Source: an uncultured Planctomycetia bacterium
GTDB taxonomy: Bacteria; Omnitrophota; Gorgyraeia; Tantalellales; Tantalellaceae
NCBI GenBank assembly: GCA_964572255.1
Contig: CAZNEE010000001.1
Location: 395,587-459,586 of the forward strand
DNA: 64,000 bases
Direction: 5' to 3'
In this document: positions 1-46,677 of the stretch, piece after piece
Layout of the letters: the number at the start of each line of letters is the position of its first letter
Position numbering within the stretch: position 1 is the stretch's first letter
Program-made: the position numbers and the translations under genes
The notes under the pieces: model-generated
Told to the model about the DNA's origin: nothing
The model's input: the letters and a program-made list of their open reading frames with translations, nothing else
Database searches by the model: none

Positions 1-658
1 AGATTCACCTCCCAGTTTCGGGTTCTTGACGCTGAATTCCATGTACGCCGCCAATATGATAATTGTCCCGGTGGACCTGAGCTATTTTTCCTTTAACGGA
101 GTTGACAGCGTTTACAGGGTGGCCAATCTTTTAGAGACAGAAACCGGCAGAAAACCTTCGGTGCATTTCGTTCTGAATGTATATGATCAACGTTCCAACT
201 TTGCAAAGAGCTTCGAACAGGATGCAAAACGCAAACTTGGGTCATCGCTTTTCTCTACAAAAATACGTTCAAGCGTAAGGGTAAGGGAAGCGGCCAAGAC
301 CGGTAAAACGATTTTTGAACATGATTCGAAATGTTCGGCAGCGCTTGATTTTTACAATCTTATCAGCGAGATCCTTACAGTGGAAGAAAAAATCTCTGAG
401 ACTATCGTGAGGGAATTCGCGCTGAACGCTCCAAAAGCGGGATCCGTATATGTTCTTGGCGATTTCAACGGCTGGAAAAAAGCGGAAGCAAACCGTCTTG
501 CTAAGGTCGAAGACGGAAAATGGTCGGCTCATTTCAACATCAAAAGAGGGACATATAAATATAAGTTTTTAGTGGATGACAAGTGGATACACGATCCGGG
601 CAATCCAGATACCGAGAAGAACAATTTCGGCACGGTGGATTCTGTTCTTAAGATATAA
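1..658 (+). CDS. ParA/MinD-like P-loop ATPase, C-terminal part, fused to a C-terminal CBM48 / AMPK-beta glycogen-binding domain (5' partial; no stop upstream in frame to position 2)
   Basis: The N-terminal part of the fragment has the ParA/Soj C-terminal pattern (IVPVDLSYFSF..VYDQRSNF..VRVREAAKTGKTIFEHD). The last ~80 aa (VYVLGDFNGWKK...KYKFLVDDKWIHDPGNPDTE..FGTVDSVLKI) match the AMPK1_CBM/CBM48 signature (GsFnnW..YKFxVDGxWxhDP..G..NNvi). The frame is open to the window edge. Confidence 0.6.
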   Translation, partial: DSPPSFGFLTLNSMYAANMIIVPVDLSYFSFNGVDSVYRVANLLETETGRKPSVHFVLNVYDQRSNFAKSFEQDAKRKLGSSLFSTKIRSSVRVREAAKTGKTIFEHDSKCSAALDFYNLISEILTVEEKISETIVREFALNAPKAGSVYVLGDFNGWKKAEANRLAKVEDGKWSAHFNIKRGTYKYKFLVDDKWIHDPGNPDTEKNNFGTVDSVLKI

Positions 659-686
659 GAGAACCGGTATGTGCGGATAGAAATAA

Positions 687-718
687 GGGGGCGTTTCTTA
701 AAAAAGGAAACGCCCTTT
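687..718 (+). terminator. Intrinsic terminator-like hairpin after the ParA-CBM48 gene
   Basis: GGGCGTTTC (689-697) and GAAACGCCC (707-715) form a 9-bp GC-rich stem, followed by TTT. Confidence 0.45.
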
Positions 719-722
719 AGTT

Positions 723-1139
723 ATGACAGCGTTTAATGTGACCCCCAGGAAAGAAAAAACCCTTCGCGAAAAGATGCGGCGTTTCGACGTTAAAGAAAGC
801 GATCTTATTGAGAGATTTGTAAGGTCATCGGGGCGCGGCGGGCAAAATGTCAATAAAGTTGCTACCTGTGTATATCTGAAACATAAGCCTACAGGGATAG
901 AAGTAAAGTGTTCCAGAGAACGTTCACAATCCTTAAATCGTTTTCTTGCCCGCAGGATACTTGTCCAAAAGATAGAGAATACGTTGCTCGGCAAGCTTTC
1001 CGAAGAAAGGAAGAGGATAGAGAAAATACGCAGGCAAAAACGCAAACGGTCCAAACGGGCTAAAGAAAAGATGCTTGAAGAGAAAAAAAAGCGGTCCGAG
1101 AAGAAGACATTGCGGAGAAAAGTGAAATTGGAAGAGTGA
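723..1139 (+). CDS. arfB: Peptidyl-tRNA hydrolase ArfB (ribosome rescue factor, RF-1 domain with GGQ)
   Basis: 138 aa. Contains SSGRGGQNVNKV with the GGQ motif, and a lysine/arginine-rich C-terminal tail typical of ArfB/YaeJ. Confidence 0.7.
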   Translation: MTAFNVTPRKEKTLREKMRRFDVKESDLIERFVRSSGRGGQNVNKVATCVYLKHKPTGIEVKCSRERSQSLNRFLARRILVQKIENTLLGKLSEERKRIEKIRRQKRKRSKRAKEKMLEEKKKRSEKKTLRRKVKLEE

Positions 1140-1152
1140 CACGGGAGGGATA

Positions 1153-2715
1153 ATGGCGAGGAAAATAAGAGACTCATGGGGTTCGCGTCTCGGCGTTATA
1201 ATGGCTGTTGCCGGTTCTGCTGTCGGTCTCGGTAATTTCTTAAGGTTTCCCGTTCAAGCTGCGAAAAACGGAGGAGGCGCTTTCATGATACCGTATTTTG
1301 TTGCGCTTCTTCTTGTCGGTATCCCGATCATGTGGGTTGAGTGGGCTATAGGCAGATACGGCGGCGGTTTTGAACATTCGACCGCGCCGGGAGTTTTTCA
1401 CAGTCTTTGGGAGAAGAACAGGTTCATAAAATATTTCGGCATCATCGGCATCTTCGGTCCGATGGTCATCCTTATTTACTATACTTACATCGAATCGTGG
1501 ACGCTTGCTTACAGTTTTTTCGCCCTTGTTCAGAAATATTCGGGCATAACCAGCCAATCGTCTATGCAGTCCTTTTTAATGGGGTTTCAGGGGCTTGAGA
1601 AAAATCAATATTTCACCAGTATCGCCCCCGCGTATATCTTTTTTGTCATAACTTTCATCATAAACATGGTGGTCCTGAATTACGGCATACGGGGAGGGAT
1701 AGAACGTTTTTGCAAATTTGCCATGCCGACACTTTTTATCTTCGGGATCATATTGGCAATAAGGGTTTTAACTTTAGGGACTCCGGATCCTTCTAAACCC
1801 GGATGGAATATTTTCAACGGATTGGGGTATTTGTGGAATCCCGATTTTTCCCAGCTAAAAAGCGCTAAGATATGGCTGGCAGCGACAGGCCAGATCTTCT
1901 TCACGCTGAGTGTTGGAATAGGCGTGATCCTGACTTATGCGAGTTATTTAAAAAAAGGGGACGATGTTGCGCTTTCAGGGCTCACCGCGGTAAGTACAAA
2001 TGAAATGGCGGAAGTAATACTCGGGGGCAGTATAATCATTCCGGCGGCTTTCGTGTTTTTCGGTCCCATGATGATAGGTAATATCGCAAATTCCGGGGCG
2101 TTTAACCTGGGCTTTGTGACCATGCCGCTTATTTTCGGACATATGCCGTTTTCGGAAGTGTTCGGCTTTTTATGGTTCGGGCTGTTATTTCTCGCGGGCG
2201 TCACTTCATCCGTATCTTTAGCCCAGCCGGCCATAGCTTTTATTGAGGATGAATTTAACCTCACGCGCAAAAAAGCGGTCGCGCTTTTTGGCGCTGTAAC
2301 ATTTTTACTTTGTAACGGAGCGATATTTTTTCTTGGAAAAGGCGTTGTGGATGAACTTGATTTCTGGGGAGGGACATTTTGTCTGGTCCTTTTCGCCACA
2401 ATAGAAGTCATACTTTTCGGCTGGATATTCGGCATTGAAAAAGCCTGGGAAGAAGTGCATCACGGAGCTGATATGCGCATACCGCGTGTTTATAAGTACA
2501 TTATTAAATATATTACCCCTGTTTTCCTCCTGGTAATTTTAGCCGCATGGTTTCTGCAGGAATGGCTGCCGATAATAGGAATGAGCAATGTTTCCGATGC
2601 GAACAGGCCTTACATCATGGCGACCCGAATAGGTTTAATTTTGCTTTTCCTTGTACTTGCCGTTCTCGTGAAGGTCGCCTGGAAGAAAAGGGAAGTGAAG
2701 AGGGGGAAAAAATGA
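1153..2715 (+). CDS. Sodium-dependent transporter, NSS/SNF family (LeuT-like)
   Basis: 520 aa, polytopic. N-terminal GSRLGVIMAVAGSAVGLGNFLRFPVQAAKNGGGAFMIPYF is the NSS family signature. An RBS (GGGAGGGATA) precedes the ATG. Confidence 0.85.
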   Translation: MARKIRDSWGSRLGVIMAVAGSAVGLGNFLRFPVQAAKNGGGAFMIPYFVALLLVGIPIMWVEWAIGRYGGGFEHSTAPGVFHSLWEKNRFIKYFGIIGIFGPMVILIYYTYIESWTLAYSFFALVQKYSGITSQSSMQSFLMGFQGLEKNQYFTSIAPAYIFFVITFIINMVVLNYGIRGGIERFCKFAMPTLFIFGIILAIRVLTLGTPDPSKPGWNIFNGLGYLWNPDFSQLKSAKIWLAATGQIFFTLSVGIGVILTYASYLKKGDDVALSGLTAVSTNEMAEVILGGSIIIPAAFVFFGPMMIGNIANSGAFNLGFVTMPLIFGHMPFSEVFGFLWFGLLFLAGVTSSVSLAQPAIAFIEDEFNLTRKKAVALFGAVTFLLCNGAIFFLGKGVVDELDFWGGTFCLVLFATIEVILFGWIFGIEKAWEEVHHGADMRIPRVYKYIIKYITPVFLLVILAAWFLQEWLPIIGMSNVSDANRPYIMATRIGLILLFLVLAVLVKVAWKKREVKRGKK

Positions 2716-2816
2716 CGGTTTTTGGCTGGATTTTCATTTTTATGTCATGGACGGCGATATTGATCCTTTCTTTTTTCTGTTTTTCAAAGATTTTCAGGAA
2801 AAAGAAGCTGGATTAA
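2712..2816 (+). CDS. Small hydrophobic peptide (34 aa, single TM) translationally coupled to the NSS transporter
   Basis: Its ATG overlaps the transporter stop (ATGA at 2712-2715). A strong RBS, AGGGGGAA, sits just upstream. The product is MTVFGWIFIFMSWTAILILSFFCFSKIFRKKKLD. Confidence 0.35.
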   Translation: MTVFGWIFIFMSWTAILILSFFCFSKIFRKKKLD

Positions 2817-2824
2817 AAATATTT

Positions 2825-2851
2825 TTGCATTTTGGAGAGAATTGTTATAAT
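2825..2851 (+). promoter_or_regulatory. Sigma70-type promoter with extended -10 (TTGCAT ... TGtTATAAT)
   Basis: -35 TTGCAT at 2825-2830 and an extended -10 TGTTATAAT at 2843-2851, with a 15-nt spacer. It lies about 55 bp upstream of the PC4-like gene. Confidence 0.45.
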
Positions 2852-2908
2852 ATATAAACATATAAATATTACGCATTAAAATAATACTCTAGAAAAAAGG
2901 GGGCATAA

Positions 2909-3142
2909 ATGGAAAAAGATGTCGCTTCTTTTGAAAAAAACAAGTACCAGGATATCAAAGTCCGCATATCTGAATTCCAGGGCAATGATGTTATTGACAT
3001 CCGCATCTGGACACAACCTCCGCAGGGCGAGGAGAAAGTGCCGACAGGTAAGGGGATCAATATCAATGTAAAGCTTTTTCCTAAGCTTAAAGAGGCTATC
3101 GAAAAGCTGGAGAAAGAGCTTAAAGACAGTAGCATGATTTAA
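2909..3142 (+). CDS. PC4/YdbC-like small ssDNA-binding protein (transcriptional coactivator p15 fold)
   Basis: 77 aa. The pattern ...KVRISEFQGNDVIDIRIW....KVPTGKGININVKLFPKL.. resembles bacterial PC4-like (PF02229) proteins. RBS AAAAGGGGG. Confidence 0.45.
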   Translation: MEKDVASFEKNKYQDIKVRISEFQGNDVIDIRIWTQPPQGEEKVPTGKGININVKLFPKLKEAIEKLEKELKDSSMI

Positions 3143-3164
3143 AACAGAATGAAAAGGAAAATGT

Positions 3165-3602
3165 ATGGTAGAAGGTAAAGAAAAAAGACGTTTTATCAGA
3201 CATCTTTTGGTCAATCCTCTCGAGTTCCAAGTTGCCGAAGAAGAGCCGGAAAGAACAGAGACGGTCAATGTTTCCGAAGGCGGGCTTATGTTCATGTCGA
3301 AAAAGGATGTTCCCGCGGAAACCCCGATCAAGATACAGATGCCTCTTTACGATAAAGTTTTTCAAATAAAGGCAATCGTTGTGCACAGCACCAAGGACGA
3401 AACTGCCGGGCTGTACAAGATAGGAGTTAAGTTCGAAAGTTTCGCTGACGCGTTCAAGGTTAAACTTATCGAGCAGATATACTTGATCGAAGAATACAGG
3501 ATACTCAGGTCGCTTCAGCTTGGCAAAGAGCTCAGTTTACAGGAAGCGTCAAAAGAATGGATCAAGAGATACTCCAAACGGTTCGAAAAGCTGTACTGGT
3601 AA
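3165..3602 (+). CDS. PilZ-domain c-di-GMP binding protein
   Basis: RRFIRH (RxxxR) is followed by NVSEGGLMF (D/NxSxGG), the two-part PilZ c-di-GMP binding signature. 145 aa. Confidence 0.65.
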   Translation: MVEGKEKRRFIRHLLVNPLEFQVAEEEPERTETVNVSEGGLMFMSKKDVPAETPIKIQMPLYDKVFQIKAIVVHSTKDETAGLYKIGVKFESFADAFKVKLIEQIYLIEEYRILRSLQLGKELSLQEASKEWIKRYSKRFEKLYW

Positions 3603-3626
3603 TTAATTAAGGTTTGTTAAGTTTTA

Positions 3627-3667
3627 AAAAGCCGGTTTCATTATTTATAGTGGAACCGGCTTTTTTA
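3627..3667 (+). terminator. Rho-independent terminator
   Basis: AAAAGCCGGTT (N17) AACCGGCTTTT forms an 11-bp stem (3627-3637 / 3654-3664); the T-run of the 3' arm continues into TTTTTTATTA. Confidence 0.7.
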
Positions 3668-3718
3668 TTATCCCGCCAATAATATTTTTTCAGAAAAAAA
3701 TCAGCCTTGAGATAATAT

Positions 3719-3747
3719 TTGACAAAATATACTTGTATATGTATACT
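3719..3747 (+). promoter_or_regulatory. Near-consensus sigma70 promoter (Pmra) for the dcw cluster
   Basis: TTGACA at 3719-3724, a 17-nt spacer, and TATACT at 3742-3747. Located about 25 bp upstream of mraZ. Confidence 0.65.
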
Positions 3748-3769
3748 TTTTAGTAGATAGTGGAGTAAA

Positions 3770-4225
3770 GTGGAGGAGAGTAGAGTGTTCTACGGAGAGT
3801 ATTCACATACGCTTGATAAGAAAGGACGTTTGATAATTCCGTCCAGATTCCGCGATGTTATCAAGGACAGCGGCATAGAAAAATTGTATGTGACGCGCGG
3901 GTTGGACGAGTGTCTTTTCATATTTTCAGAAGATGAGTGGAGAGTTCAGGAAAATAAATTCAAGTCGATGTCTTTCACAAAAAGAGAAGTAAGAAAGTTC
4001 AGAAGGCTTTTCTTTTCAGGCGCGATCGAAACGGCTCCGGATAAACAATGGCGGATATTGATCCCTGATTATCTTAAAGAGTATGCACATCTTTCCAGGA
4101 GTATTGTTATTATCGGCGTGTCAAACCGTATCGAAGTATGGGACAAAAAGAAATGGAAAGATTTCTATACCACCACCAAAGAAAATTACGAAGATATAGC
4201 TGAGGGGATAATTGAGCCCGAATAA
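3770..4225 (+). CDS. mraZ: Transcriptional regulator MraZ
   Basis: The tandem MraZ/DUF131 motif is present (YGEYSHTLDKKGRLIIPSRFR and a second half). It sits at the head of the dcw cluster. The start is GTG 3770, or alternatively GTG 3785. Confidence 0.85.
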   Translation: MEESRVFYGEYSHTLDKKGRLIIPSRFRDVIKDSGIEKLYVTRGLDECLFIFSEDEWRVQENKFKSMSFTKREVRKFRRLFFSGAIETAPDKQWRILIPDYLKEYAHLSRSIVIIGVSNRIEVWDKKKWKDFYTTTKENYEDIAEGIIEPE

Positions 4226-4251
4226 AAGATGAGTTGCCAAGGGGGAAGGGC

Positions 4252-4443
4252 ATGTACAGAAGATACGCGGTCAAATTTCACAACAAGAAAGCTGAATTCA
4301 TCAATTGCGTGAATATGGTCGAAAGAGAAAAAAAGGCAAGAGCGCTCCATTCGGGAATGTCACATCTTGGCGTTAGAAGATACGTCCTTTCCTCAAGCGG
4401 TATCGGGAAAAAAGGGTTTATCAGGATCAAAGATTGTAAATAA
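4252..4443 (+). CDS. Hypothetical small basic protein (63 aa)
   Basis: ATG preceded by AAGGGGGAAGGG. No recognisable domain. It lies in the normally tight mraZ-rsmH junction. Confidence 0.3.
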   Translation: MYRRYAVKFHNKKAEFINCVNMVEREKKARALHSGMSHLGVRRYVLSSSGIGKKGFIRIKDCK

Positions 4444-4463
4444 ATATATAAAAAGGGGCAAGC

Positions 4464-4646
4464 ATGAAAAAGTATCTTCAAGCATGCGAGGTCGGAGGAT
4501 CGATTTACGGGAAGAAGCGGCAGACAAAAATGCATACTGACCAGGGCAAGAACAAAGTCTTAAAACAGGATGTCATGACTGTCTATAACAAGTTTTACAA
4601 GGATCAGGTTGCCGCTTTATATAAAGCGATCCACAACAGCAAATAA
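4464..4646 (+). CDS. Hypothetical small basic protein (60 aa)
   Basis: ATG preceded by AAAAGGGG. No recognisable domain. Confidence 0.3.
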   Translation: MKKYLQACEVGGSIYGKKRQTKMHTDQGKNKVLKQDVMTVYNKFYKDQVAALYKAIHNSK

Positions 4647-4653
4647 ACATTAA

Positions 4654-5535
4654 ATGCATTTTCCGGTACTTTTAGAAGAAGTTATCTTTAATCTTAAACC
4701 GGAAGTCGGAGATATTATCCTGGATGCTACAGCGGGCGGCGGGGGCCACGCCAGAGCGATACTCGAGAAAATAGCGCCGGGAGGGAAACTTATCACCCTT
4801 GATAGGGATCAAGAAGCCGTCCGGAGGGTCCGAGAGGAACTAAAAGATTTCCAGGAGAACCTTGTAGCTTTAAACGAAAATTTTAAGAATGTAGACAAAG
4901 TTCTTGATTCTTGTAATATAGACCGCATTGACGGAGCGCTTTTTGATCTTGGCATGTCTTCATTTCAGCTTGATGAGCCCGAAAGAGGGTTCAGTTTTTC
5001 CAAAGACGGTTCTCTTGATATGAGGTTCAATACCTCGGAAGGCATGACGGCCTGCGATGTCGTGAATAAATTCAGCATGGCGGATCTGGCCCAGATCATA
5101 AAAAAATACGGGGAAGAACGGCATTCAAAGTTAGTCGCGAAAGCGATCGTTGAATACAGGAGATCCGGGCGGATTCAGACGACAGGTGAATTGGCTGAGA
5201 TCATAAATAAAGCAATAGGCCGGAAATATTCAAGGCTTAAGCTGCATCCGGCGGCAAGAACGTTTCAGGCTTTACGGATATACGTGAATGATGAACTCGG
5301 CGCTCTGGAAGAGGGGGTAAAGAAAGCTTTATCCTTTTTGAGCCCCACAGCAAGGATTTGCGTTATCTCGTTTCATTCTCTTGAAGATAGAATAGTCAAA
5401 AACATCTTCAGGACGATGGCGAGAGTGGGCGATCTGGAGCTCGTGGTAAAAAAGCCTGTAAGGCCGAGCGAGGGGGAAATTGATGAAAATCCCCGGTCAA
5501 GAAGCGCTAAGTTAAGAGTAGCGGAAAAATTATAA
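4654..5535 (+). CDS. rsmH: 16S rRNA (cytosine1402-N4)-methyltransferase RsmH (MraW)
   Basis: LDATAGGGGHARAILEK is the SAM-binding region of MraW. Position within the dcw cluster fits. Confidence 0.9.
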   Translation: MHFPVLLEEVIFNLKPEVGDIILDATAGGGGHARAILEKIAPGGKLITLDRDQEAVRRVREELKDFQENLVALNENFKNVDKVLDSCNIDRIDGALFDLGMSSFQLDEPERGFSFSKDGSLDMRFNTSEGMTACDVVNKFSMADLAQIIKKYGEERHSKLVAKAIVEYRRSGRIQTTGELAEIINKAIGRKYSRLKLHPAARTFQALRIYVNDELGALEEGVKKALSFLSPTARICVISFHSLEDRIVKNIFRTMARVGDLELVVKKPVRPSEGEIDENPRSRSAKLRVAEKL

Positions 5536-5897
5536 TGAAAATATCAAAATTTATTACTATAGGGACCATAATTACAATAATATCTATCGGATATGTTCAC
5601 CAAAGAACAGAAATGATAAAATTGGGATATGCCCTCCAGGACAACAGGATCAAGCTGGCCACTCTCGTTGACCAGAATTCCAAATTAATGTATAATCTTT
5701 CCAAACTGGAATCTCCAAGGACTTTACTCGCTTCATTAGATTGTGAGCAGATAAAATTTGCAAATCACCGGCAGCGGCAAGAGGAAAGTTACCAGCTTAC
5801 CGGCTCAGAGGCCCAGAAAATAAGTTCGACAGAGGCTATCTTTGGACGTTTTTTGGACCTCTTTACTTTAAATGCTGAAGCGAGACCTCGCAAGTAA
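5535..5897 (+). CDS. ftsL: Cell division protein FtsL
   Basis: 120 aa, bitopic (N-terminal TM followed by a coiled coil). Its start overlaps the rsmH stop (TAATG). It lies between rsmH and ftsI. Confidence 0.7.
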   Translation: MKISKFITIGTIITIISIGYVHQRTEMIKLGYALQDNRIKLATLVDQNSKLMYNLSKLESPRTLLASLDCEQIKFANHRQRQEESYQLTGSEAQKISSTEAIFGRFLDLFTLNAEARPRK

Positions 5898-5951
5898 TTC
5901 TTTCACAAGAGGTAAAAAGCTCTATTCCTAAATACTTATTTGCGGAGCGGA

Positions 5952-7640
5952 ATGTTCAAGACACGCCAATATTTTATATTTTTCATCTTAATATTAATTT
6001 TATTCTTCTTATTTGCAAGATTGGCCTATCTGCAGGTTATAAATCGCAAGAAATTCTCAGAGTTAGCCTCCGACCAGCACAACAGTATAATAAAAGTCGA
6101 GCCGAGAAGGGGGACGATATATGACAGGTTCATGGAACCCTTGGCGATCAATCTTGATGTCCCGAGTATTTATGCTGATCCCCGCAGCATCCATGACAAG
6201 AAGTATGTCTCAGATAAGCTTTCCGGTATATTGAACATGAACAGCTCCGTTTTACTCGAAAGATTACAGAAGGATAAGGCTTTTGTCTGGGTAAAACGCA
6301 AAGTCAGCGCCCAAGAGGCGGAGAAGGTGAGGGTGCTCAAACTTGAAGGCGTGAATTTTGTAACGGAGAGTAAACGGCACTATCCGAATGATTCCATGGC
6401 CTGCCATGTTATAGGATTTGCCGGCATCGACAACGAGGGGCTTGAGGGGCTGGAGTTATCATTGAATGATGAGCTTAAGGGGCAGCATGGCTGGAGGTCA
6501 CTTGTCAGGGACGCGAAACGAAGAACAGTTCTTTTTAATGAAAGGGAATCTGTGCCGCCGCAAGACGGTTATAATGTGATCCTTACAATAGATAGTGTGA
6601 TACAATACATTGTAGAGGAAGAAATAAAGGCCATGGCCGAAAAGTATAATGCTTCCTCTGCTTCGTGTGTTGTGATGGAACCTTCAACCGGCAGGATACT
6701 TGCATTGTGCAACTATCCGGGTTTTGATCTTAACTCATTCGGACAGGTGCCTAAAGAAGGGGTCAAAAATGATCCCGTATCCAGCGTTTTTGAACCGGGA
6801 AGCGTTTTCAAGGTCGTTACTGCCGGCGCGTCATTAAACGAGATCGCGGTTGACCCTGAAGAGGAATTTGATTGTGAGAACGGTACCTACAACGTCGGCG
6901 GAAGGATATTGCATGATTACCACCCGTATGGGATATTATCCTTTAAAGAGGTTATTTCAAAATCAAGTAATATAGGCACGGTAAAAGCCGCGTACAAACT
7001 CGGCGATAAGAAATTATATGAATATATAAGAAAATTCGGTTTTGGCGAAAAGACCGGGATCGATCTGCCGGGAGAAGTAGAGGGCATTGTGAGGCCCCCG
7101 TCAACATGGTCAAGAAGCGACATGACAACGATACCTATCGGTCAGGGTATAGCCGTTACTACCATCCAGCTGGCCTGTACGGCAAGTACAATAGCTAATG
7201 GCGGGCTTCTCATGAAGCCGTATATTATCGATAAGATAACTACATGGGAGAACGAGACATTCAGAAAGAACGGTTCCGAACTTAAACGCCGTGTTTTAGA
7301 CGAAGTCACTTGTAACAGGATGAAAAATATAATGCATGAGGTGGTGTTAAACGGGACAGGAAGAAGGGCCGCTTCAAAGATCTACGAGTTTTGCGGAAAA
7401 ACCGGGACAGCGCAGGCAGTTGATCCAAATGGCGGATATTATCCGAATAAATACAACGCTACCTTTATAGGATTTGCTCCCAAAGAAAGACCTTTGGTCA
7501 GTATAGTTGTCACGGCCTATGATCCCCATCCTGTTCATTTCGGCGGGAGTGTGGCGGGGCCGGCTTTCAAGAGAATAGCGGAGCGCACGCTGCAGTATTT
7601 AAAAACAAATGTTCCTATAGCGGAACATGCTGATAATTAA
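5952..7640 (+). CDS. ftsI: Penicillin-binding protein 3 / FtsI transpeptidase
   Basis: SxxK (GSVFKVVTA), SxN (SKSSNIG) and KTG (GKTGTAQ) motifs are all present, plus an N-terminal TM. The ORF track starts at TTG 5940; the ATG at 5952 with a GGAG RBS is the preferred start. Confidence 0.85.
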   Translation: MFKTRQYFIFFILILILFFLFARLAYLQVINRKKFSELASDQHNSIIKVEPRRGTIYDRFMEPLAINLDVPSIYADPRSIHDKKYVSDKLSGILNMNSSVLLERLQKDKAFVWVKRKVSAQEAEKVRVLKLEGVNFVTESKRHYPNDSMACHVIGFAGIDNEGLEGLELSLNDELKGQHGWRSLVRDAKRRTVLFNERESVPPQDGYNVILTIDSVIQYIVEEEIKAMAEKYNASSASCVVMEPSTGRILALCNYPGFDLNSFGQVPKEGVKNDPVSSVFEPGSVFKVVTAGASLNEIAVDPEEEFDCENGTYNVGGRILHDYHPYGILSFKEVISKSSNIGTVKAAYKLGDKKLYEYIRKFGFGEKTGIDLPGEVEGIVRPPSTWSRSDMTTIPIGQGIAVTTIQLACTASTIANGGLLMKPYIIDKITTWENETFRKNGSELKRRVLDEVTCNRMKNIMHEVVLNGTGRRAASKIYEFCGKTGTAQAVDPNGGYYPNKYNATFIGFAPKERPLVSIVVTAYDPHPVHFGGSVAGPAFKRIAERTLQYLKTNVPIAEHADN

Positions 7641-9102
7641 TAAAAAAATGTATAACACGATCGAAAAAATATTAAAACAAACCCCGTTCAATAAGGATAA
7701 CGTAAAGACTGACTCAAGGAAAGTTGCCCCCGGCGATATTTTTGTTGCGATAAAAGGCACGAGATATGATGGCCATGATTATATTCTTGGAGCGTTGAAA
7801 AAAGGCGCAAAACTTGTATTGTGCGAGGAAGAAATTGCCGGCCTGTCAGACGATGACAGAAAAAAAGTCATCAGAGTCGAAGACACTAAAAAAACTCTGG
7901 CGCTTATTGCCAAACATGTTTTTAACGACCCGTCCAATTCACTCAAGGTATATGGGATAACAGGAACTAACGGTAAAACCACGACAGCGTTTCTGATAGA
8001 TAAGATCCTTAATACAGCGGGCACGGACTCCGGGTTCATAACAACAGTTTTCACCAAGACAGCGGGTGAGGAAGTGACGCGTTCATCGATGACAACGCCT
8101 GATTCCGTGACGCTCAACAGTTTGTTAAGAGATATGGCCGCAAACGGCAAGAAAGCCGCTGTGATGGAAGTTTCAAGCCATGCGCTTGATCAGGAGAGGG
8201 TATGCGGGATCGAATTTGCGAGCGCGGTATTTACGAACATTACCCCGGAGCACCTGGATTATCACGGCAGTATGGAGAAATATCTTAAGGATAAGTCCAG
8301 GATATTTGAAAACTTGAAGGCAAACAGCATAGCGGTGCTTAATCAGGATGACCAGTCCGTCAGGAGCATCAAAAGTGCGATAACCGGCAGGGTAGTCACT
8401 TTCGGCATAAAGGAAAGAGCCGATATAATCGCCAGGAACATAAAATTATCATCCGACGGTACTTCTTTTGATCTTATTATTGATAATGCAGGTTCATTAC
8501 ATGTTGAGACAAAACTGATCGGCGAGCATAATGTTTATAATATTCTGGCGTCTGTAGCAGCGCTCGTTGATAGCGGTATCGATCTAAGTGTTTTCGAAAA
8601 GGCGCTGAATGAAGCTGTATCGGTCCCCGGCAGGCTGGAACTGGTTACGGATAAAACCCCTTTTCGGATTTTCGTGGATTATGCGCATACACCTGACGCT
8701 TTGGAGAATGTTTTAAAGTGTCTTAAAGATCTGAGTGAAAACCGGCTTATGTGTGTTTTTGGTTGCGGCGGAGACCGGGATAAGACCAAAAGGCCTGTTA
8801 TGGGGGAAATAGCCAGCAGGATATGCGACAAGGTTATAATAACAAGTGATAATCCGAGAACAGAGGATCCGCGCCAGATCATAAACCAGATCGAAAAAGG
8901 CGTGCTCAAGGGTGCGGACTATAGTATAATATTAGATAGAAAAAAAGCTATCTTTGAGGCAATTGATAAGGCAAAAGAAAAGGATATTATCGTTATCGCG
9001 GGCAAGGGGCACGAGGACTATCAGATCATAGGCGATAAGGTGTTAGAGTTCGACGATAAAAAAGTCGCCCTTGAAATACTAAAAGAATTAAAGTATATAT
9101 AG
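7627..9102 (+). CDS. murE: UDP-N-acetylmuramoyl-L-alanyl-D-glutamate--2,6-diaminopimelate ligase MurE
   Basis: Mur ligase P-loop GITGTNGKTTT. The DNPR motif (SDNPRTEDP) indicates meso-DAP specificity. Confidence 0.9.
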   Translation: MLIINKKMYNTIEKILKQTPFNKDNVKTDSRKVAPGDIFVAIKGTRYDGHDYILGALKKGAKLVLCEEEIAGLSDDDRKKVIRVEDTKKTLALIAKHVFNDPSNSLKVYGITGTNGKTTTAFLIDKILNTAGTDSGFITTVFTKTAGEEVTRSSMTTPDSVTLNSLLRDMAANGKKAAVMEVSSHALDQERVCGIEFASAVFTNITPEHLDYHGSMEKYLKDKSRIFENLKANSIAVLNQDDQSVRSIKSAITGRVVTFGIKERADIIARNIKLSSDGTSFDLIIDNAGSLHVETKLIGEHNVYNILASVAALVDSGIDLSVFEKALNEAVSVPGRLELVTDKTPFRIFVDYAHTPDALENVLKCLKDLSENRLMCVFGCGGDRDKTKRPVMGEIASRICDKVIITSDNPRTEDPRQIINQIEKGVLKGADYSIILDRKKAIFEAIDKAKEKDIIVIAGKGHEDYQIIGDKVLEFDDKKVALEILKELKYI

Positions 9103-9112
9103 CAAGTGTTCG

Positions 9113-9160
9113 GACTATTCCTCGCAGGGACGTCAAAATTCCCCAGCGAGGAATTTTGAC
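9113..9160. repeat. Palindromic repeat family A, copy 1 (core CTCGCAGGGACGTCAAAATTCCCCAGCGAG)
   Basis: A second copy is at 32517-32575. Its flanking stem bases co-vary: TTCCTCGC/GCGAGGAA here versus TTTCTCGC/GCGAGAAA in copy 2. It sits in an unusual ~160 bp gap between murE and murF. Confidence 0.6.
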
Positions 9161-9263
9161 TCAAAAGTTCCCTCGCTCGTCGAGCCAATTTAACGCAGGA
9201 CACCGTGCTCGCTCGGTCACTTATGCCCTGCTCGGAACAGTCCAAACACTTGCAATAAATATT

Positions 9264-10631
9264 ATGTTTAATTTCACTATTACCGACATACTCAAGATCA
9301 CCGGCGGGGAATTGTTTGCCGGAGCCGAAGAGACTCCCGTCAAAGGGTTCTCGATCGATTCAAGGACCATCAAGCCCGGGGATATATTCATTGCCGTAAA
9401 AGGTGAGCATTTTGACGGACATGATTTCATGGACCAGGCAATAAGCAGGGGCGCTTCAGGAATAATCGCAGAAAGACCGCCTTCCGGTTTAATTTCCTCG
9501 AACATGATCAAAGTTGAGAATACGATAGAAGCAATGGTGAGGATCGCCCGTTACTTAAGAGGATTATCGGATATCCCGGTAATATGCATAACCGGAACTA
9601 ACGGGAAAACAACTGTTAAAGATATTCTATCTCACATATTATCGACGAAATACAAAGTTCTTAAAAGCGAAAAGTCTTACAATAATACCATCGGGGTTTG
9701 CCTTACATTGTTTGGATTGGATGCTTCACACCAGATCGCCGTTCTTGAATTGGGGACAAATCATTTTGGCGAGATAAGGAAGCTTGCGGAGATAGCATTG
9801 CCTGATATTGCCGTTATTAATAATATAGGAAGAGGCCACATCGAATTTTTCGGGGACATTGAAGGAGTATTCAAAGAAAAGACGAGTTTACTGGATGTAT
9901 TGCCTGAAAAAGGAACGGTTTTCTTGAACAAGGACGATGCGATGCTTAGTTCCGTAAAGAAGTGTGCGTGCGGGAAAAAATTTTTTGGAAGATCGTCCGG
10001 AAGCGATCTATTGATCTCCGATATTCAAAGGCAAGAAGAAGGGTACAGCTTTCTTGTGAACGGAGAGAAATTCAATATTCCTCTTGAAGGAGAACATAAT
10101 GTTTATAATGCCGCAGCGGCTATTGCGGTGGCGAAAGAGTTCGGGATAGAGAATAGCAAAATAAAAGAAAAGCTGGCAGGTATTTCCCCGCCTGAGATGC
10201 GGCTTCAAAAAATGAAACTTGGCGATGTATTTTTTATCAACGATTCTTATAATGCCAATCCGGATTCTTTTAAAAGTGCGCTCGATGTTCTTTCCGCGGT
10301 ATCTTCAGGCGGCAGAAAAGGGATCATTGCGGGATGCATGATGGAATTGGGCGGCGAAAGCGACCGGATGCATAGAGATCTGGGAGAAGATATCGCGTTG
10401 AAAGGTTTTGATTTCCTGATAACTGTAGGCGGCAACGCAAGGCATATTGCGGAAGGGGCAAAGCATAAAGGGATGGATCCTTCCAATATCTTTGAAGCTG
10501 ACAGCAATAGGACAGCGGCCGATCATATGAAAAACATCACTAAAACGGGCGATGTGGTTCTTTTAAAAGGTTCCAGAAAAGCGAAATTGGAGGAAGTGCT
10601 TACATGTTTTACCACTTGCTGTACCCGTTAA
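9264..10631 (+). CDS. murF: UDP-N-acetylmuramoyl-tripeptide--D-alanyl-D-alanine ligase MurF
   Basis: Mur ligase P-loop ITGTNGKTT, and position after murE. The start is placed at ATG 9264 (MFNFTITDIL...). The upstream extension to 9156 only reads through repeat A. Confidence 0.85.
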   Translation: MFNFTITDILKITGGELFAGAEETPVKGFSIDSRTIKPGDIFIAVKGEHFDGHDFMDQAISRGASGIIAERPPSGLISSNMIKVENTIEAMVRIARYLRGLSDIPVICITGTNGKTTVKDILSHILSTKYKVLKSEKSYNNTIGVCLTLFGLDASHQIAVLELGTNHFGEIRKLAEIALPDIAVINNIGRGHIEFFGDIEGVFKEKTSLLDVLPEKGTVFLNKDDAMLSSVKKCACGKKFFGRSSGSDLLISDIQRQEEGYSFLVNGEKFNIPLEGEHNVYNAAAAIAVAKEFGIENSKIKEKLAGISPPEMRLQKMKLGDVFFINDSYNANPDSFKSALDVLSAVSSGGRKGIIAGCMMELGGESDRMHRDLGEDIALKGFDFLITVGGNARHIAEGAKHKGMDPSNIFEADSNRTAADHMKNITKTGDVVLLKGSRKAKLEEVLTCFTTCCTR

Positions 10632-19238: not shown

Positions 19239-20291
19239 ATGGATAAACAGATCGTATCGATGCATATTGGCTCGGGAGAGATAACGGTAGTTTCCGCTCA
19301 TTGGGCAAGGGGCGGCGAGTATGTATTGGACGGTTTTTACAGGACCGGCGCAAAAGGCTTGCGGGAAGGAGTTGTTACCGATACGAACGAGGCCATAGAT
19401 TCCATTGCCAGGTCATTAAATGGAATAAGGGGGAGAACCGGCATCAAGTTCAGGGAGGTCTATACCGGGATAACATCCCCGTCAGTGGATATGATGCCTG
19501 CCATGGGAGATGTTCTGCTGTCAAAGTACGGAAGGGAGATAAATCCCGGCGATATGAAAAAATGCGTGGAAATGGGGTCGGTGATCAAACTTCCTTTAGA
19601 GAGGGAATCTTTGCATAAGCTGGTCAGCGAATTTTATGTAGACGGAGAAAAAGGCATTAAAAATCCCGTAAATCTTGAAGCGGTAAAGCTCGGAGTGAAG
19701 ATCAATATTATAACGATAAGATCCAATATTCTGAATAATCTTATAAAATGCATAAATATGGCAGGATATCTTTCTTCAGGATTTGTTCTTTCCGGGCTTG
19801 CTTCTTCGTACAGGACGCTTACTCAGGAAGACAAAAATGAAGGGGCGGCGCTCATACGCATTTCTAAAGAGATCACGGAGATCCTCTTTTTCAATAAAGG
19901 GGTCATGACGAACTGCAAGGTCCTTGCTAAAGGCGCGGATAACATCATGGCAAGCGACAATACGATCAATGAAGATGTGCTGGGTGAACTTACATCAAGG
20001 ATCAGGCAATATCCTGAGTGGAAACAGACCAAAAGAATAGTTTTGACAGGGGAAGGATCCATGTATGAAGGCATGTTAGAGTCATGGGAAAGTTCATTGA
20101 ACTCGCCGGTGAAAATCGGGAATTGCCTTGCAAGGCCGTTCGAAAACCTGCCTGAAGACAGAATGGGTTATATCGTAAGCCTCGGCATTTTAGACCATCT
20201 TTATCGGGAAAAACAGCAAAACCGGCTCGCCAACAATCTCATCAACGGGGCATTTTACAGAGTAACGGGATTTATCGATAAGTACTTTTAA
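19239..20291 (+). CDS. ftsA: Actin-like cell division protein FtsA (short form, 350 aa)
   Basis: FtsA-type N-terminus (IVSMHIGSGEITVV...GLREGVVTDTNEAIDSIARS) and position after ftsQ. It is shorter than typical FtsA (~420 aa). Confidence 0.65.
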   Translation: MDKQIVSMHIGSGEITVVSAHWARGGEYVLDGFYRTGAKGLREGVVTDTNEAIDSIARSLNGIRGRTGIKFREVYTGITSPSVDMMPAMGDVLLSKYGREINPGDMKKCVEMGSVIKLPLERESLHKLVSEFYVDGEKGIKNPVNLEAVKLGVKINIITIRSNILNNLIKCINMAGYLSSGFVLSGLASSYRTLTQEDKNEGAALIRISKEITEILFFNKGVMTNCKVLAKGADNIMASDNTINEDVLGELTSRIRQYPEWKQTKRIVLTGEGSMYEGMLESWESSLNSPVKIGNCLARPFENLPEDRMGYIVSLGILDHLYREKQQNRLANNLINGAFYRVTGFIDKYF

Positions 20292-20310
20292 TATTGACTT
20301 TGTTTTAGAA

Positions 20311-20382
20311 GTACAGTGCATTTCCTACCAGGGCCCCTCCGCCCGGTGTGGATCCTCCCTGTACGGAAATACACTGTACTTT
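20311..20382 (+). repeat. Structured repeat family B, copy 1 (core GGGCCCCTCCGCCCGGTGTGGATCCTCCC inside a 16-bp outer stem; core-sense on plus strand)
   Basis: The 27-nt core is identical to the copies at 31412-31481 and, in reverse complement, 32625-32695. A 43-nt stretch is identical to copy 3. Outer stems co-vary between copies. The hairpin is followed by TTTT, so it may also serve as the ftsA terminator. Confidence 0.7.
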
Positions 20383-20499
20383 TGAATAAAAGTAAAGCAG
20401 AAAAGTACTTGGCGCTAGATTCCCTTTGCTATTGACATGTATATAAAATTATGCTACTTTTAACCATTAAAATTATTAATATTATAGGGAAAATATGCC

Positions 20500-21300
20500 A
20501 TGAAGAATCTTAAGTTGGGCGTTATAGGCTGCGGTAACATGGGAAGCGCAATAGTGAGGGGCGTGACCAAAAAGGGCATTATCGAAAGCGAGAACATCCT
20601 TATAAATGATGAGGATACAGATAAAGCCGCTTCTCTCGCAAGCGAAACAGGCTGCCGTTCGGCAGAGCTTCCGGATCTGGCAGGCAAGGCCGACTATTTA
20701 CTTTTTGCTGTCAAACCCCAGGATTTTGATGCTCTGGCTGACCGGATAAAGGATCAAATCTCCGGCCAGACTATAGTATCCATTATGGCGGGCGTTACTA
20801 TCGAAGCCATTACCGAAAAAATTGGGAAGGAAACACCTGTAATAAGGGCAATGCCTAACATGGCGGCATTTGCTTCTTCCGGGGTTACTTGCATCTCCTG
20901 CAATAAGCTGGTTGACGATCTTCAGGATGTGAAAGATATTTTCAGGGCCGTAGGCGAGGTGATGGAAGTTGAAGAGGATGATCTGGATGCCGTCACCGCT
21001 ATTTCCGGTTCGGGGCCTGCGTATCTGTTCTTTCTCGCGGATGCCATGATATCTGCCGGCGAAAAGTCAGGGCTAAGCAGGGAAAAGGCGGAAGAGCTTG
21101 TAAAACAAACCTTATACGGTTCGTCCGTTCTTTTAAAGGATTCGAAGGATCTGCCTTCAGAGCTTATTGGTAAGGTTGCTTCTAAAGGCGGTACTACAGA
21201 AGCGGCGCTGTCGGTTCTTAAGGACAGAGACGTGAAAGGTGCGATAATAGAGGCTGTCATAAAAGCAAAGAAAAGGTCCGAAGAATTATCCGGGAGATAA
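20500..21300 (+). CDS. proC: Pyrroline-5-carboxylate reductase ProC
   Basis: NADP-binding LKLGVIGCGNMGSAIVRG and a P5CR C-terminal dimerisation region. Confidence 0.85.
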   Translation: MKNLKLGVIGCGNMGSAIVRGVTKKGIIESENILINDEDTDKAASLASETGCRSAELPDLAGKADYLLFAVKPQDFDALADRIKDQISGQTIVSIMAGVTIEAITEKIGKETPVIRAMPNMAAFASSGVTCISCNKLVDDLQDVKDIFRAVGEVMEVEEDDLDAVTAISGSGPAYLFFLADAMISAGEKSGLSREKAEELVKQTLYGSSVLLKDSKDLPSELIGKVASKGGTTEAALSVLKDRDVKGAIIEAVIKAKKRSEELSGR

Positions 21301-28105: not shown

Positions 28106-29398
28106 ATGGACTGGAAAATAAAAAAAGCTAAGAGGTTGAATGGAGAGCTGACAGTACCTGCGGATAAAAGTATCTCGCATCGCGCTGTCATGTTCGGCTC
28201 CATAGGAAAAGGGAAATGCCGCATTGATAATTTTCTTTCAGGAGAGGACTGCATGCGTACATTCGATGCTTTTCGTGCTATGGGGGTTGATATCGAAAGA
28301 GACGGGGATACCGTCATTGTTAAGGGTAATGGTTTAAAAGGGTTAAAAGCTCCGGAAAAAGATCTTTATTTGGGCAATTCCGGCACGACTATGCGTATAA
28401 TCTCCGGCATTCTTGCGGGACAAGGTTTCGCTACAACTCTTACGGGAGATGAATCGTTATCAAAGCGTCCGATGAAGAGAATAATGGAACCGTTAACTCT
28501 TATGGGGGGAAAAATAGAAGCTTTAGAAGGAGGGGATCATGCGCCTTTAAGAATAGAAGGTACCGGCAGGCCCCTTGCTCCGATCGATCATAAAACTCCT
28601 GTGGCCAGCGCGCAGGTAAAATCCTGCATCCTCGCTGCGGGACTTTACGCTGATGGGGTTACTTCCGTGACAGAACCTTTTCAGTCCAGGGACCATACTG
28701 AAAGGATGCTTGAATATTTTTCAGCTGATATTAAAAGAGAAGGGCTTAAGACAGAGATAAAAGGATTAAAAGAACTTTCGCCTAAAGACGTGAAGATCCC
28801 GGGAGACATTTCCGGCGCGGCGTTCTTTATCGTAGCGTCTCTCATTTTGGGAGGATCAAGTATCATAATACGGAATGTAGGATTAAATTCAACGCGAAGA
28901 GGATTGTTGGATGTTCTGGAGCGCATGGGCGCCGGCATAGAGATCCTTGATGTACATGACGGGCTTGAACCGGCAGGGGACCTGGAAGTAAAAAGTTCTG
29001 CGTTAAAAGGCACAACGGTGGAAGAGGCGGAGGTCCCTCTTCTTATAGATGAGATACCGATACTTGTTATTGCCGCAGCTTTTGCCGGGGGACAAACTGT
29101 CATAAAAGGGATAAAAGAGCTGAAGGTGAAAGAGTCGGACAGGATAAGGGCCATGACAGAGAACCTGAGAGGCATGGGCGTCACTCTGGAAGAAAAAGAA
29201 AATTCCCTTATTATACACGGAGGCGCGGAGGCGCTTGAGGCTTCCGAACTTGATAGTTTTGCGGATCATCGTATCGCGATGAGCATGGCGATCGCGGCGC
29301 TTACCTCAGATGGCGAATGTGTTATCAGGAACACTGCCTGTGTTGATACTTCGTATCCCGCCTTTTTAAGCGATCTGGAAAAGCTTATTGTCCGCTAG
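28106..29398 (+). CDS. aroA: 3-phosphoshikimate 1-carboxyvinyltransferase (EPSP synthase) AroA
   Basis: LGNSGTTMR motif. 430 aa. Confidence 0.9.
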   Translation: MDWKIKKAKRLNGELTVPADKSISHRAVMFGSIGKGKCRIDNFLSGEDCMRTFDAFRAMGVDIERDGDTVIVKGNGLKGLKAPEKDLYLGNSGTTMRIISGILAGQGFATTLTGDESLSKRPMKRIMEPLTLMGGKIEALEGGDHAPLRIEGTGRPLAPIDHKTPVASAQVKSCILAAGLYADGVTSVTEPFQSRDHTERMLEYFSADIKREGLKTEIKGLKELSPKDVKIPGDISGAAFFIVASLILGGSSIIIRNVGLNSTRRGLLDVLERMGAGIEILDVHDGLEPAGDLEVKSSALKGTTVEEAEVPLLIDEIPILVIAAAFAGGQTVIKGIKELKVKESDRIRAMTENLRGMGVTLEEKENSLIIHGGAEALEASELDSFADHRIAMSMAIAALTSDGECVIRNTACVDTSYPAFLSDLEKLIVR

Positions 29399-31325: not shown

Positions 31326-31411
31326 TTCTCCCCCCTTAATTGTTGATACATTGTGTATACCATAAAAGGCGATGCGAGTCAAATAGTTGATGAGAATCTC
31401 AATATTAAAGT

Positions 31412-31481
31412 GAGTGGTAGGTACCTTTCGTGGGCCCCTCCGCCCGGTGTGGATCCTCCCACTCAAGGCACCTACCACTCG
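31412..31481 (+). repeat. Structured repeat family B, copy 2 (core-sense on plus strand)
   Basis: The identical 27-nt core GGGCCCCTCCGCCCGGTGTGGATCCTCCC. The outer stem is different but still self-complementary: GAGTGGTAGGTACC / GGCACCTACCACTC. Confidence 0.7.
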
Positions 31482-39836: not shown

Positions 39837-39890
39837 ATCCATAAGGGTAGTTATCCATAATAAGCACCTATTGACTTAATGGAGGGGGTC

Positions 39891-40958: not shown

Positions 40959-40971
40959 AAAGGAGATAAAC

Positions 40972-43139: not shown

Positions 43140-43162
43140 TTTAAAAAATAAAGGCAAAAAAG

Positions 43163-44872: not shown

Positions 44873-44923
44873 TTCGTTTTCTTTAGATTTAACCAATCAT
44901 ACATATATAACGGGGGTCGGGGA

Positions 44924-46144: not shown

Positions 46145-46293
46145 GGCTTAACTTTTGTACGGCTAACCGGTAAAAATTTCTTCCTATCGGTTTGCTTTTC
46201 TCAGTTTCAAAATGTAAACTAAAATCGAGGGTAGGTATATCTGGAAACAAATAAAACTTTTAAAAAGAGTCATAGAAAGGAGGTGAGGATAAA

Positions 46294-46641: not shown

Positions 46642-46677
46642 TTACGGTAACGGTTTCAGCGGGCGCAAAATGTTTAT

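Follow-up and report, generated by a model that had tools for sequence, protein, structure and literature searches.

A ParA/Soj-type ATPase fused to a glycogen-binding (CBM48) module and encoded next to a likely activator protein

The left edge of the 64-kb stretch of DNA analysed here (the window; contig CAZNEE010000001.1) falls inside a gene whose visible part appeared, in a preliminary description, to join the C-terminal half of a ParA/MinD-type ATPase to an AMPK-beta/CBM48 domain. That description proposed a dedicated system for positioning or partitioning a polysaccharide storage granule. The N-terminus was not visible. We asked whether the fusion is real, whether it occurs in other genomes, and what such a protein could do.

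An intact fusion of a Soj-class ATPase and an AMPK-beta-type CBM48

The portion of the gene within the window is one open frame of 218 codons plus stop (Table 1). Pfam searches with this fragment identified AMPK1_CBM (PF16561, E 4e-13, 49.8 bits against a cut-off of 26.8, fragment residues 147-217), CBM_48 (PF02922, E 3e-6, 27.8 bits against a cut-off of 22.4) and AAA_31 (E 3e-8, residues 1-47). The NCBIfam model ParA_partition matched residues 1-123 (E 4e-10), although the score was far below its equivalog cut-off (39.5 against 180 bits). The missing N-terminus was recovered from a contig that is 100% identical to window 1-9449 (JGI 3300029267, contig Ga0310068_1000017, 256.6 kb; locus L088 in our set of loci). 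This contig carries the whole gene at 8792-9835(-) of the locus, encoding 347 aa from an ATG preceded by AGGAGG, without a stop or frameshift. The N-terminus, MRIISVANQKGGCGKTT, contains the deviant Walker A motif KGGCGKT. The full-length protein matched AAA_31 at E 8e-43 and AMPK1_CBM at E 8.6e-13. As about 100 orthologues of 347-348 aa (57-78% identical) have the same architecture, this is not an assembly chimera. A tblastn search of the window found only the gene itself. We conclude that the architecture given in the preliminary description is correct.

Table 1. Features of the ParA-CBM48 gene and its 3' flank, in window coordinates
Position	Strand	Feature	Residues or detail
2..658	+	3' part of the ParA-CBM48 gene	Codons 130-347 plus stop; the first 386 nt lie upstream of the window
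2..379	+	C-terminal half of the Soj-type ATPase domain	aa 130-255; Walker B Asp130 (IDSPP), equivalents of the Soj DNA-binding basic patch (R193, K198, R218/R222, K239) and the last helix
380..400	+	Short linker between the ATPase and the CBM	aa 256-262
401..655	+	CBM48 / AMPK-beta-type glycogen-binding module	aa 263-347; W287 at 473-475, K317 at 563-565, W324 at 584-586
686..718	+	14-bp G+C-rich hairpin, probably the transcription terminator of the gene	28 nt after the stop codon, followed by UUUAGUU

The ATPase is Soj-like both in sequence and in predicted fold. Its best solved relatives are Thermus thermophilus Soj (1wcv, E 8e-34) and Helicobacter pylori Soj (6iub), and identity to the chromosomal Soj/ParA proteins (1wcv/2bek; 6iub, 8jmj) is 29-34%. 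An AF2 model (pLDDT 92.4) matched Soj, ParA, McdA and MinD structures at probability 1.00 in Foldseek, with Soj/ParA as the top hits (TM 0.85-0.93 normalised to the target). In an alignment of 81 relatives that are 30-100% identical, the catalytic residues K10, K15, D37, D39 and D130 were conserved in 81/81. H. pylori Soj residues K199/K227/K230/K247, implicated in DNA binding (PMC6393308), map to K198/S219/R222/K239, such that three of the four positions are basic and the fourth is Ser next to R218, which is invariant among the close orthologues. Conservation of the patch across the family is partial; R193 is conserved in 79/81 and R222 is K/R in 66/81. The ParB-peptide site of H. pylori ParA, L50-G51-F52 (PMC11229316), maps to L48-G49-Y50. 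However, only L48 holds family-wide, as G49 is Gly in only 36 of 81 and Y50 is mostly Ile or Val.

The best solved matches of the C-terminal module are the AMPK beta1 CBM structures 4yef/1z0m (E 7e-9). In the alignment to the rat AMPK beta1 CBM, W100, K126, W133, L146 and N150, which appear to be the residues that hold sugar in AMPK, correspond to W287, K317, W324, F338 and D342. W287, W324 and G339 are conserved in 81/81, K317 is K/R in 73/81 and D342 is N/D in 80/81, with many relatives having N at this last position. From these data we conclude that the sugar-contacting residues are under strong purifying selection. The linker length varies in relatives from -3 to +79 residues relative to this protein, and the linker is much longer in proteins of 450-700 aa, which argues for a tethered binding module rather than an allosteric domain.

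An exhaustive search showed that most of the top 150 cluster representatives have this architecture. The family has hundreds of cluster representatives under more than ten phylum labels, and Omnitrophota dominate. Many of the hits lacking the CBM are contig-end fragments. Members are currently labelled 'AAA family ATPase' or 'chromosome partitioning protein', which is misleading. We found no description of the family in the literature that could be searched.

An adjacent partner gene and the genomic neighbourhood

A homologous bitopic protein is encoded next to the ATPase gene in 49 of 87 loci, and within 400 nt in 48 of these. In this genome the partner is a single-pass inner-membrane protein with a predicted cytoplasmic N-terminal helix and an extracytoplasmic CBM27-like beta-sandwich; it is not McdB-like. 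D17, I19, L23 and F28 of its N-terminal tail are invariant in 46 orthologues while the rest of the tail varies. In other phyla the partner is an unrelated soluble protein. The only feature shared by all partner types is a short N-terminal motif preceded by Lys/Arg, which resembles the ParB peptide that activates ParA ATPases. The motif reads LGRGLEDVSHLFLS in some lineages, like the ParB N-terminus, and KINAELSKTFF in this genome, where it is a predicted helix. A related motif occurs in 60 of 215 adjacent ORFs against 6 of 1184 others. The pattern was defined after inspection of the data; the occurrences in adjacent ORFs include four loci (L064, L065, L069 and L083) that were not used to define it. 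One short activating-type motif appears on both membrane and soluble partner proteins.

We next examined whether the neighbourhood connects the pair to glycogen. In most Omnitrophota relatives the pair sits directly after a GH57 gene, and GH57 lies within 5 kb in 23 of 87 loci. The enzyme has no signal peptide and is closest to a GH57 amylopullulanase (E 1e-91). One distant relative faces a cluster of two GH57 genes, a glycosyltransferase and a free-standing CBM48 (locus L006). The GH57 linkage comes mostly from one large Omnitrophota clade, however, and so represents few independent events. In contrast, no glycogen gene was found in Pfam scans of about 40 ORFs of this window or in the 10 kb upstream. 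In this subfamily the gene lies directly upstream of PC4-PilZ-mraZ-dcw, and GH130 is beside it in three loci (L002, L004 and L009). Neighbours outside Omnitrophota (UvrA-like, ClpB, solute-binding protein and PhoH) showed no common theme. In one published study most Omnitrophota MAGs encode glycogen synthesis, including Tantalella remota, which has an orthologue, whereas Aadella gelida, which also carries an orthologue, was scored as making trehalose only (this MAG is 91% complete).

Possible roles of the ATPase

Our preferred but tentative explanation, which rests on sequence comparison and structure prediction rather than biochemistry, is that the gene encodes one half of a two-gene, ParA-type spatial-organisation module for cytoplasmic alpha-glucan (glycogen) particles. 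The granule system proposed in the preliminary description is strengthened but not shown. In the inferred mechanism, the ATP-bound ATPase forms a sandwich dimer that binds the nucleoid through the partly retained Soj basic patch and presents two CBM48 modules that grip glycogen, coupling granules to the chromosome. The N-terminal peptide of the membrane-anchored partner would then dock at L48-G49-Y50 and trigger ATP hydrolysis, releasing or resetting the tether. The net effect would be placement, anchoring or even inheritance of glycogen granules, together with the glycogen-degrading GH57 enzyme that most Omnitrophota relatives encode beside the pair. One difficulty is that in classical ParA systems the activating peptide sits on the cargo, and by that rule the cargo here would be the membrane protein rather than glycogen. 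A more speculative and unlikely variant is that the granule surface replaces the nucleoid or the membrane as the matrix on which the ATP-bound dimer sits. Each CBM48 would bind weakly and the dimer with two-site avidity, as for the two amphipathic helices of MinD on membranes, until the partner peptide fires hydrolysis. A granule would then organise the position of the membrane-anchored, outward-looking glycan-binding partner, or the reverse, the granule being held at or cleared from defined membrane sites. This would be a third kind of matrix for ParA/MinD machines.

The location of the activating-peptide-like motif on a membrane protein is also consistent with an organiser of envelope machinery, comparable to BcsQ for cellulose synthase, ParC/ParP for chemoreceptor arrays or HubP-type landmarks, with the CBM48 binding an alpha-glucan substrate or product at the cytoplasmic face. 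The CBM27/mannanase-CBM-like outer domain of the partner, the nearby GH130 genes, a weak Pfam/NCBIfam match to BcsQ, and the AlgE-type 'Alginate_exp' outer-membrane barrel and small membrane protein in the operon of the large Omnitrophota clade favour this view. We consider it unlikely, as non-Omnitrophota members have soluble partners and no envelope genes, the nearest solved relatives are Soj proteins rather than BcsQ or MinD, and the GH57 lacks a signal peptide. Somewhat less likely still is an energy-status sensor, in which the CBM48 would report glycogen or oligosaccharide load, as in AMPK, to a ParA that acts in cell division or nucleoid organisation, for example. The conserved position next to dcw, the fixed pose of the CBM in the AF2 model (pTM 0.89) with its 7-residue linker, and the similarity to the AMPK beta subunit are compatible with this possibility. 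However, linkers that range from very short to hundreds of residues are hard to reconcile with a docked allosteric domain, and adjacency to dcw is confined to one subfamily.

Two further alternatives are the least likely. The CBM48-like domain could be an immunoglobulin-like beta-sandwich reused for protein-protein or other non-sugar interactions, since the fold also occurs in non-enzymatic scaffolds and a type IX secretion plug protein matches weakly in the same region. Against this, exactly the sugar-contacting positions of the AMPK CBM are the invariant ones, and linkage to alpha-glucan enzymes is recurrent. The protein could also be an ordinary chromosome-partition ParA with an accessory domain, as some database names, its similarity to Soj and the largely retained DNA-binding patch would suggest. 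However, a motif scan for the ParB GERRxRA box found no ParB-like gene within +/-10 kb in any of the 87 loci, none was found in this window, and a different, conserved partner gene is adjacent.

Comparison with known systems and the 3' end of the gene

The chromosomal Soj/ParA proteins share the deviant Walker A with its signature lysine, Walker A' and Walker B, and the L-G-aromatic site is present in this protein, which differs in its C-terminal CBM48 and in its partner. McdA/McdB is likewise an orphan ParA-type ATPase encoded next to a small partner; its partner acts through its N-terminus and the system is dedicated to a metabolic inclusion, as is inferred here. McdA is nevertheless a more distant relative (E 1e-12; 22-24% identity), its cargo is recognised by McdB rather than by a module fused to the ATPase, and no carboxysome genes were found in the window or loci. 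As in MinD, a C-terminal appendage would bind a surface with a valency doubled by dimerisation, but here it is a beta-sandwich ending ...VDSVLKI rather than an amphipathic helix, no Min genes are among the neighbours, and MinD is structurally more distant than Soj. The AMPK module is attached to a kinase scaffold instead of a P-loop ATPase. A Wzc-like paralogue in locus L051 is a different protein, and BY-kinase was rejected as a family assignment. HubP/FimV-type landmarks are also single-pass membrane proteins with a periplasmic glycan-binding domain and a cytoplasmic part that recruits ParA-like ATPases, although the partner described here has the opposite topology (N-terminus inside), a CBM27-like domain instead of LysM and a very short cytoplasmic part; no sequence relationship is claimed. 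Tethering of PHB granules to the nucleoid by PhaM/PhaF is a functional analogy only, as those are non-ATPase, histone-like proteins without homology.

ParA-type systems have been described for chromosomes, plasmids, carboxysomes, chemoreceptor arrays and division sites, whereas to our knowledge no active positioning system is known for bacterial glycogen granules. The present family is an example of a folded cargo- or matrix-binding domain fused directly to the ATPase. In Omnitrophota, which are uncultured nanobacteria, the module points to an organised link between the envelope, the nucleoid and carbon stores.

A simple terminator scan found no terminator after the gene, as the downstream hairpin failed its T-run criterion. 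RNA folding nevertheless revealed a strong hairpin with a weak U tract (-23.4 kcal/mol, z -4.4), and 0 of 200 shuffled sequences were as stable.

Gene structure and domain composition

The segment of the gene within the window is a single open frame of 218 codons that runs off the left edge. Profile searches showed that its last ~70 residues match Pfam AMPK1_CBM (PF16561; E 4e-13, 49.8 bits against a curated cut-off of 26.8) and CBM_48, whereas its first 47 residues match the end of the AAA_31 ParA-type domain. The NCBIfam ParA_partition model aligned to residues 1-123, far below its equivalog cut-off. The missing 5' end was recovered from two contigs, one that is 99.7% identical to the window (L001) and a 256.6-kb JGI contig (3300029267 Ga0310068_1000017) that is 100% identical to window 1-9449. 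On the latter contig the gene is 347 codons long, starts at an ATG behind AGGAGG located 386 nt upstream of window position 1, and contains no stop or frameshift. The encoded protein begins MRIISVANQKGGCGKTT, a textbook deviant Walker A box. Thus, the upstream stop, frameshift or non-ATPase N-terminus that the preliminary description had named as evidence against a fusion was not observed. A 14-bp G+C-rich hairpin (-23.4 kcal/mol, z -4.4) follows the stop codon, and promoter-like hexamers lie in the 165-nt divergent intergenic region upstream. The gene therefore looks like its own transcription unit.

The full-length protein scored AAA_31 at E 8e-43, as well as CbiA and AMPK1_CBM. By sequence, its nearest solved relatives are chromosomal Soj/ParA proteins, i.e. 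T. thermophilus 1wcv (E 8e-34), 8ray and H. pylori 6iub, with McdA (1e-12), MinD (1e-9) and MipZ far behind. The C-terminal part matched the AMPK beta1/beta2 carbohydrate-binding modules. An AlphaFold2 model built on 99 sequences was confident (pLDDT 92.4, pTM 0.89) and shows a predicted Soj fold up to residue 255, a 7-residue linker and a beta-sandwich. The top Foldseek hits of this model were Soj/ParA, with target-normalised TM-scores of 0.85-0.93.

We next aligned 81 family members that are 30-100% identical. Residues K10, K15, D37, D39 and D130 are invariant. Within the CBM, W287, W324 and G339 are invariant, K317 is K/R in 73 of 81 sequences, and D342 is N/D in 80 of 81. In the alignment to rat AMPK beta1, W287, K317, W324 and D342 correspond to W100, K126, W133 and N150, which are probably the residues that hold the sugar. 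The sugar site is thus the most conserved part of the domain, which argues that it binds an alpha-glucan. The linker varies from 3 residues shorter to 79 longer in these sequences, and is far longer in relatives of 450-700 aa. This variation fits a tethered binding module better than a docked regulatory domain.

The Soj DNA-binding patch (HpSoj K199/K227/K230/K247; PMC6393308) maps to K198, S219, R222 and K239. S219 lies next to R218, which is invariant among the close orthologues but is found in only 30 of 81 sequences family-wide. R193 is conserved in 79 of 81 sequences, and R222 is K/R in 66 of 81.

Distribution of the family

A word-indexed search identified about 100 orthologues of 347-348 aa, nearly all of which are labelled Candidatus Omnitrophota. 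An exhaustive HMMER search of 1.84 billion cluster representatives yielded 926 hits below 1e-30, and most of the top 150 are full-length ParA+CBM proteins of 337-700 aa at 31-47% identity. This search also returned giant proteins made of many CBM48 repeats (P0116, P0174, P0184 and P0208), for example one of 1812 aa with 18 matched stretches, that have no ATPase domain. A scan of one genome per GTDB species identified 581 encoding stretches. The best 80 cover Omnitrophota, Desulfobacterota and 'delta proteobacteria', Krumholzibacteriota, Rokubacteria, Margulisiibacteriota, Gammaproteobacteria (Thiogranum), Gemmatimonadales, Phycisphaerae, Auribacter, Myxococcales and others, while Leptospirillia and Eisenbacteria appeared in other searches. 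A second Omnitrophota subfamily, about 35% identical to the window protein, is very abundant. These proteins are called 'AAA family ATPase' or 'chromosome partitioning protein' in the sources, and no curated NCBIfam or Pfam family covers the architecture. We found no description of it in the literature that could be searched.

The adjacent partner gene

To identify conserved neighbours, ORFs were called in 87 loci and clustered. In the subfamily of the window protein, a 275-330-aa gene is transcribed divergently from the ATPase gene. In one Omnitrophota genome (locus L002), genes for giant proteins of 2082 aa and more than 2012 aa, with no Pfam match, lie next to the locus, and the 2082-aa gene has been inserted between the partner gene and the ATPase gene. 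In the large Omnitrophota subfamily, a ~190-aa gene lies 12-40 nt upstream on the same strand. An iterated profile showed that these partners are one family, which is present next to the ATPase gene in 49 of 87 loci and within 400 nt in 48 of these.

The window's partner (P0263, 292 aa) is predicted to contain a short helix at residues 18-27, a basic disordered stretch, one transmembrane helix (49-73), and a disordered linker followed by a very confident beta-sandwich (119-289, pLDDT ~97). The sandwich matches Pfam CBM27 (E 5e-7), and is structurally closest to a mannanase CBM (1wky) and to mannan-binding CBM27 modules. Across 46 orthologues the cytoplasmic tail is variable except for the helix, where D17, I19, L23 and F28 are invariant (consensus D-x-I-D-x-E-L-S-K-T-Y-F). 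The strongly basic N-terminal side suggests an N-in, C-out topology.

Outside Omnitrophota, the adjacent gene instead encodes a soluble protein of several unrelated kinds with no Pfam match. One carries an ExeA-like AAA domain, judging from its similarity to neighbouring ORFs and from inspection of the sequence, and by eye some resemble PD-(D/E)xK nucleases. The N-termini of the soluble partners read KPLGRGLEDVSHLFLS, RNLRDISHLYLS, RSLEDISHFFLS, ERFSHLFLS and DHLAKISARFLSD. In Gammaproteobacteria and Leptospirillia a MerR-family regulator precedes the ATPase gene.

LGRGL is the conserved ParB N-terminal motif. In H. pylori, ParB residues 1-10 (MAKNKVLGRG) bind ParA at L50-G51-F52, and the Lys/Arg residues are needed to stimulate the ATPase (PMC11229316). 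These ParA positions are L48-G49-Y50 in the window protein. A pattern derived from the partner sequences occurs within the first 90 residues of 60 of 215 ORFs adjacent to the ATPase gene, compared to 6 of 1184 other ORFs. Although this pattern was defined post hoc, such that the ratio is only indicative, it picked up four loci that were not used to define it (L064, L065, L069 and L083). The simplest explanation for these results is that every subfamily has a partner that acts on the ATPase through a ParB-like N-terminal peptide, while the rest of the partner differs.

Genomic context and inferred function

There is no glycogen gene in the window. The ATPase gene is followed by genes for an RF-1-domain protein, an SNF transporter, PC4 and PilZ, the dcw cluster (mraZ to ftsA), housekeeping genes, mreBCD-pbp2-rodA and a type IV pilus cluster. 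The order partner-ATPase-(variable)-PC4-PilZ-mraZ is conserved across orthologues down to 62% identity, sometimes with a GH130 gene after the ATPase gene. In the large Omnitrophota subfamily the pair is embedded in the order PPDK, sigma factor, APRT, PHP, lipoprotein, Alginate_exp-type outer-membrane barrel, GH57, partner, ATPase, small membrane protein and lysine-rich protein, where the names of the first five rest on our reading of the sequences rather than on a profile scan. No ORF with a ParB box occurs in any of the 87 loci.

Linkage to cytoplasmic alpha-glucan enzymes recurs in relatives. GH57 lies within 5 kb in 23 of 87 loci. This enzyme starts directly with the catalytic region, with no signal peptide, and is closest (E 1e-91) to a crystallised GH57 amylopullulanase that cuts alpha-1,4 and alpha-1,6 bonds. 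In addition, a 426-aa relative faces two GH57 genes, a glycosyltransferase and a free-standing CBM48 protein. Published analyses of MAGs report glycogen synthesis in most Ace Lake Omnitrophota, including Tantalella remota, which has an orthologue, but do not report it in Aadella gelida, which also has one.

We tentatively infer that the ATP dimer binds the nucleoid and, through two CBM48 modules, glycogen, and that the partner peptide triggers hydrolysis and release, resulting in placement, anchoring or partition of granules. The main tension is that the activating peptide marks the cargo in known systems. This favours an alternative, which we nevertheless consider unlikely, in which the membrane protein or its envelope complex is what gets positioned. 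It also allows a more novel but doubtful possibility in which glycogen itself is the matrix, with dimer-dependent two-site binding analogous to the amphipathic helices of MinD. A sensor role for the CBM is also unlikely, and an ordinary chromosomal ParA or a non-sugar role for the domain is very unlikely.

The preliminary description correctly identified a real fusion of a ParA-like ATPase with an AMPK-beta/CBM48 domain. Its suggestion of a dedicated system for positioning or partitioning a polysaccharide storage granule is reasonable and now better supported, but it rests on comparative evidence, and this genome's own neighbourhood is silent on glycogen. Compared with known ParA/MinD positioning machines, the system differs in having a folded, putative sugar-binding module on the ATPase and a new set of partners, and it does not constitute a new category.

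Coordinates of the ATPase gene, neighbouring genes and partner genes in related loci
Sequence	Coordinates	Strand	Feature
Window	2-658	+	ATPase-CBM48 gene, cut by the left edge
Window	686-718		Hairpin after the stop codon
Window	723-1139		138-aa RF-1-domain protein (ArfB/ICT1-like, with the GGQ region)
Window	2909-3142		77-aa PC4-family (ssDNA-binding transcriptional coactivator p15) gene
Window	3165-3602		145-aa PilZ-domain gene
Window	19239-21300		End of the dcw cluster, 350-aa FtsA-like protein followed by proC
Window	29385-31478	-	697-aa fusion of a sulfatase domain (with the SGSH_C domain) to a C-terminal block of TPR repeats
Window; L001	31412-31485; 8444-8517		74-bp stretch shared in reverse orientation
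Window	39879-59639		Type IV pilus cluster
L076	11088-11789		Soluble partner with LGRGLEDVSHLFLS-type N-terminus
L085	11180-11857		Soluble partner with LGRGLEDVSHLFLS-type N-terminus
L052	9421-10203		Soluble partner with LGRGLEDVSHLFLS-type N-terminus
L075	11068-11916		Soluble partner with LGRGLEDVSHLFLS-type N-terminus
L063	5536-6462		Soluble partner with LGRGLEDVSHLFLS-type N-terminus
L002	3561-9809 and 1-2481		Genes for giant proteins

Other features of the window were noted. The RF-1-domain protein, which has a very lysine- and arginine-rich C-terminal tail, lies directly after the ATPase gene and is present at this position in several but not all orthologous loci. The PC4 and PilZ genes sit directly upstream of mraZ, and PC4-PilZ-mraZ is conserved in every Omnitrophota locus of this subfamily, which may be a c-di-GMP input to the division/cell-wall operon. 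Only the SHS2_FTSA domain of the FtsA-like protein matched, and no ftsZ follows ftsA here or anywhere in the 64-kb window. The 74-bp stretch at the 5' end of the sulfatase-TPR gene is 94.6% identical to a stretch just upstream of the Zincin_1 gene beside the partner gene, and may be a shared 5' leader or a small repeat. The type IV pilus cluster holds PilT, a free-standing MshEN (c-di-GMP-binding) domain protein of 149 aa, two PilB paralogues that each have MshEN, PilC, a pilin, PilM, PilO and the secretin. An RNase G gene is then followed by a 133-aa pilin-like protein, a 753-aa protein and a 385-aa PilX_N protein, the first two of which have a pilin N-methylation motif.
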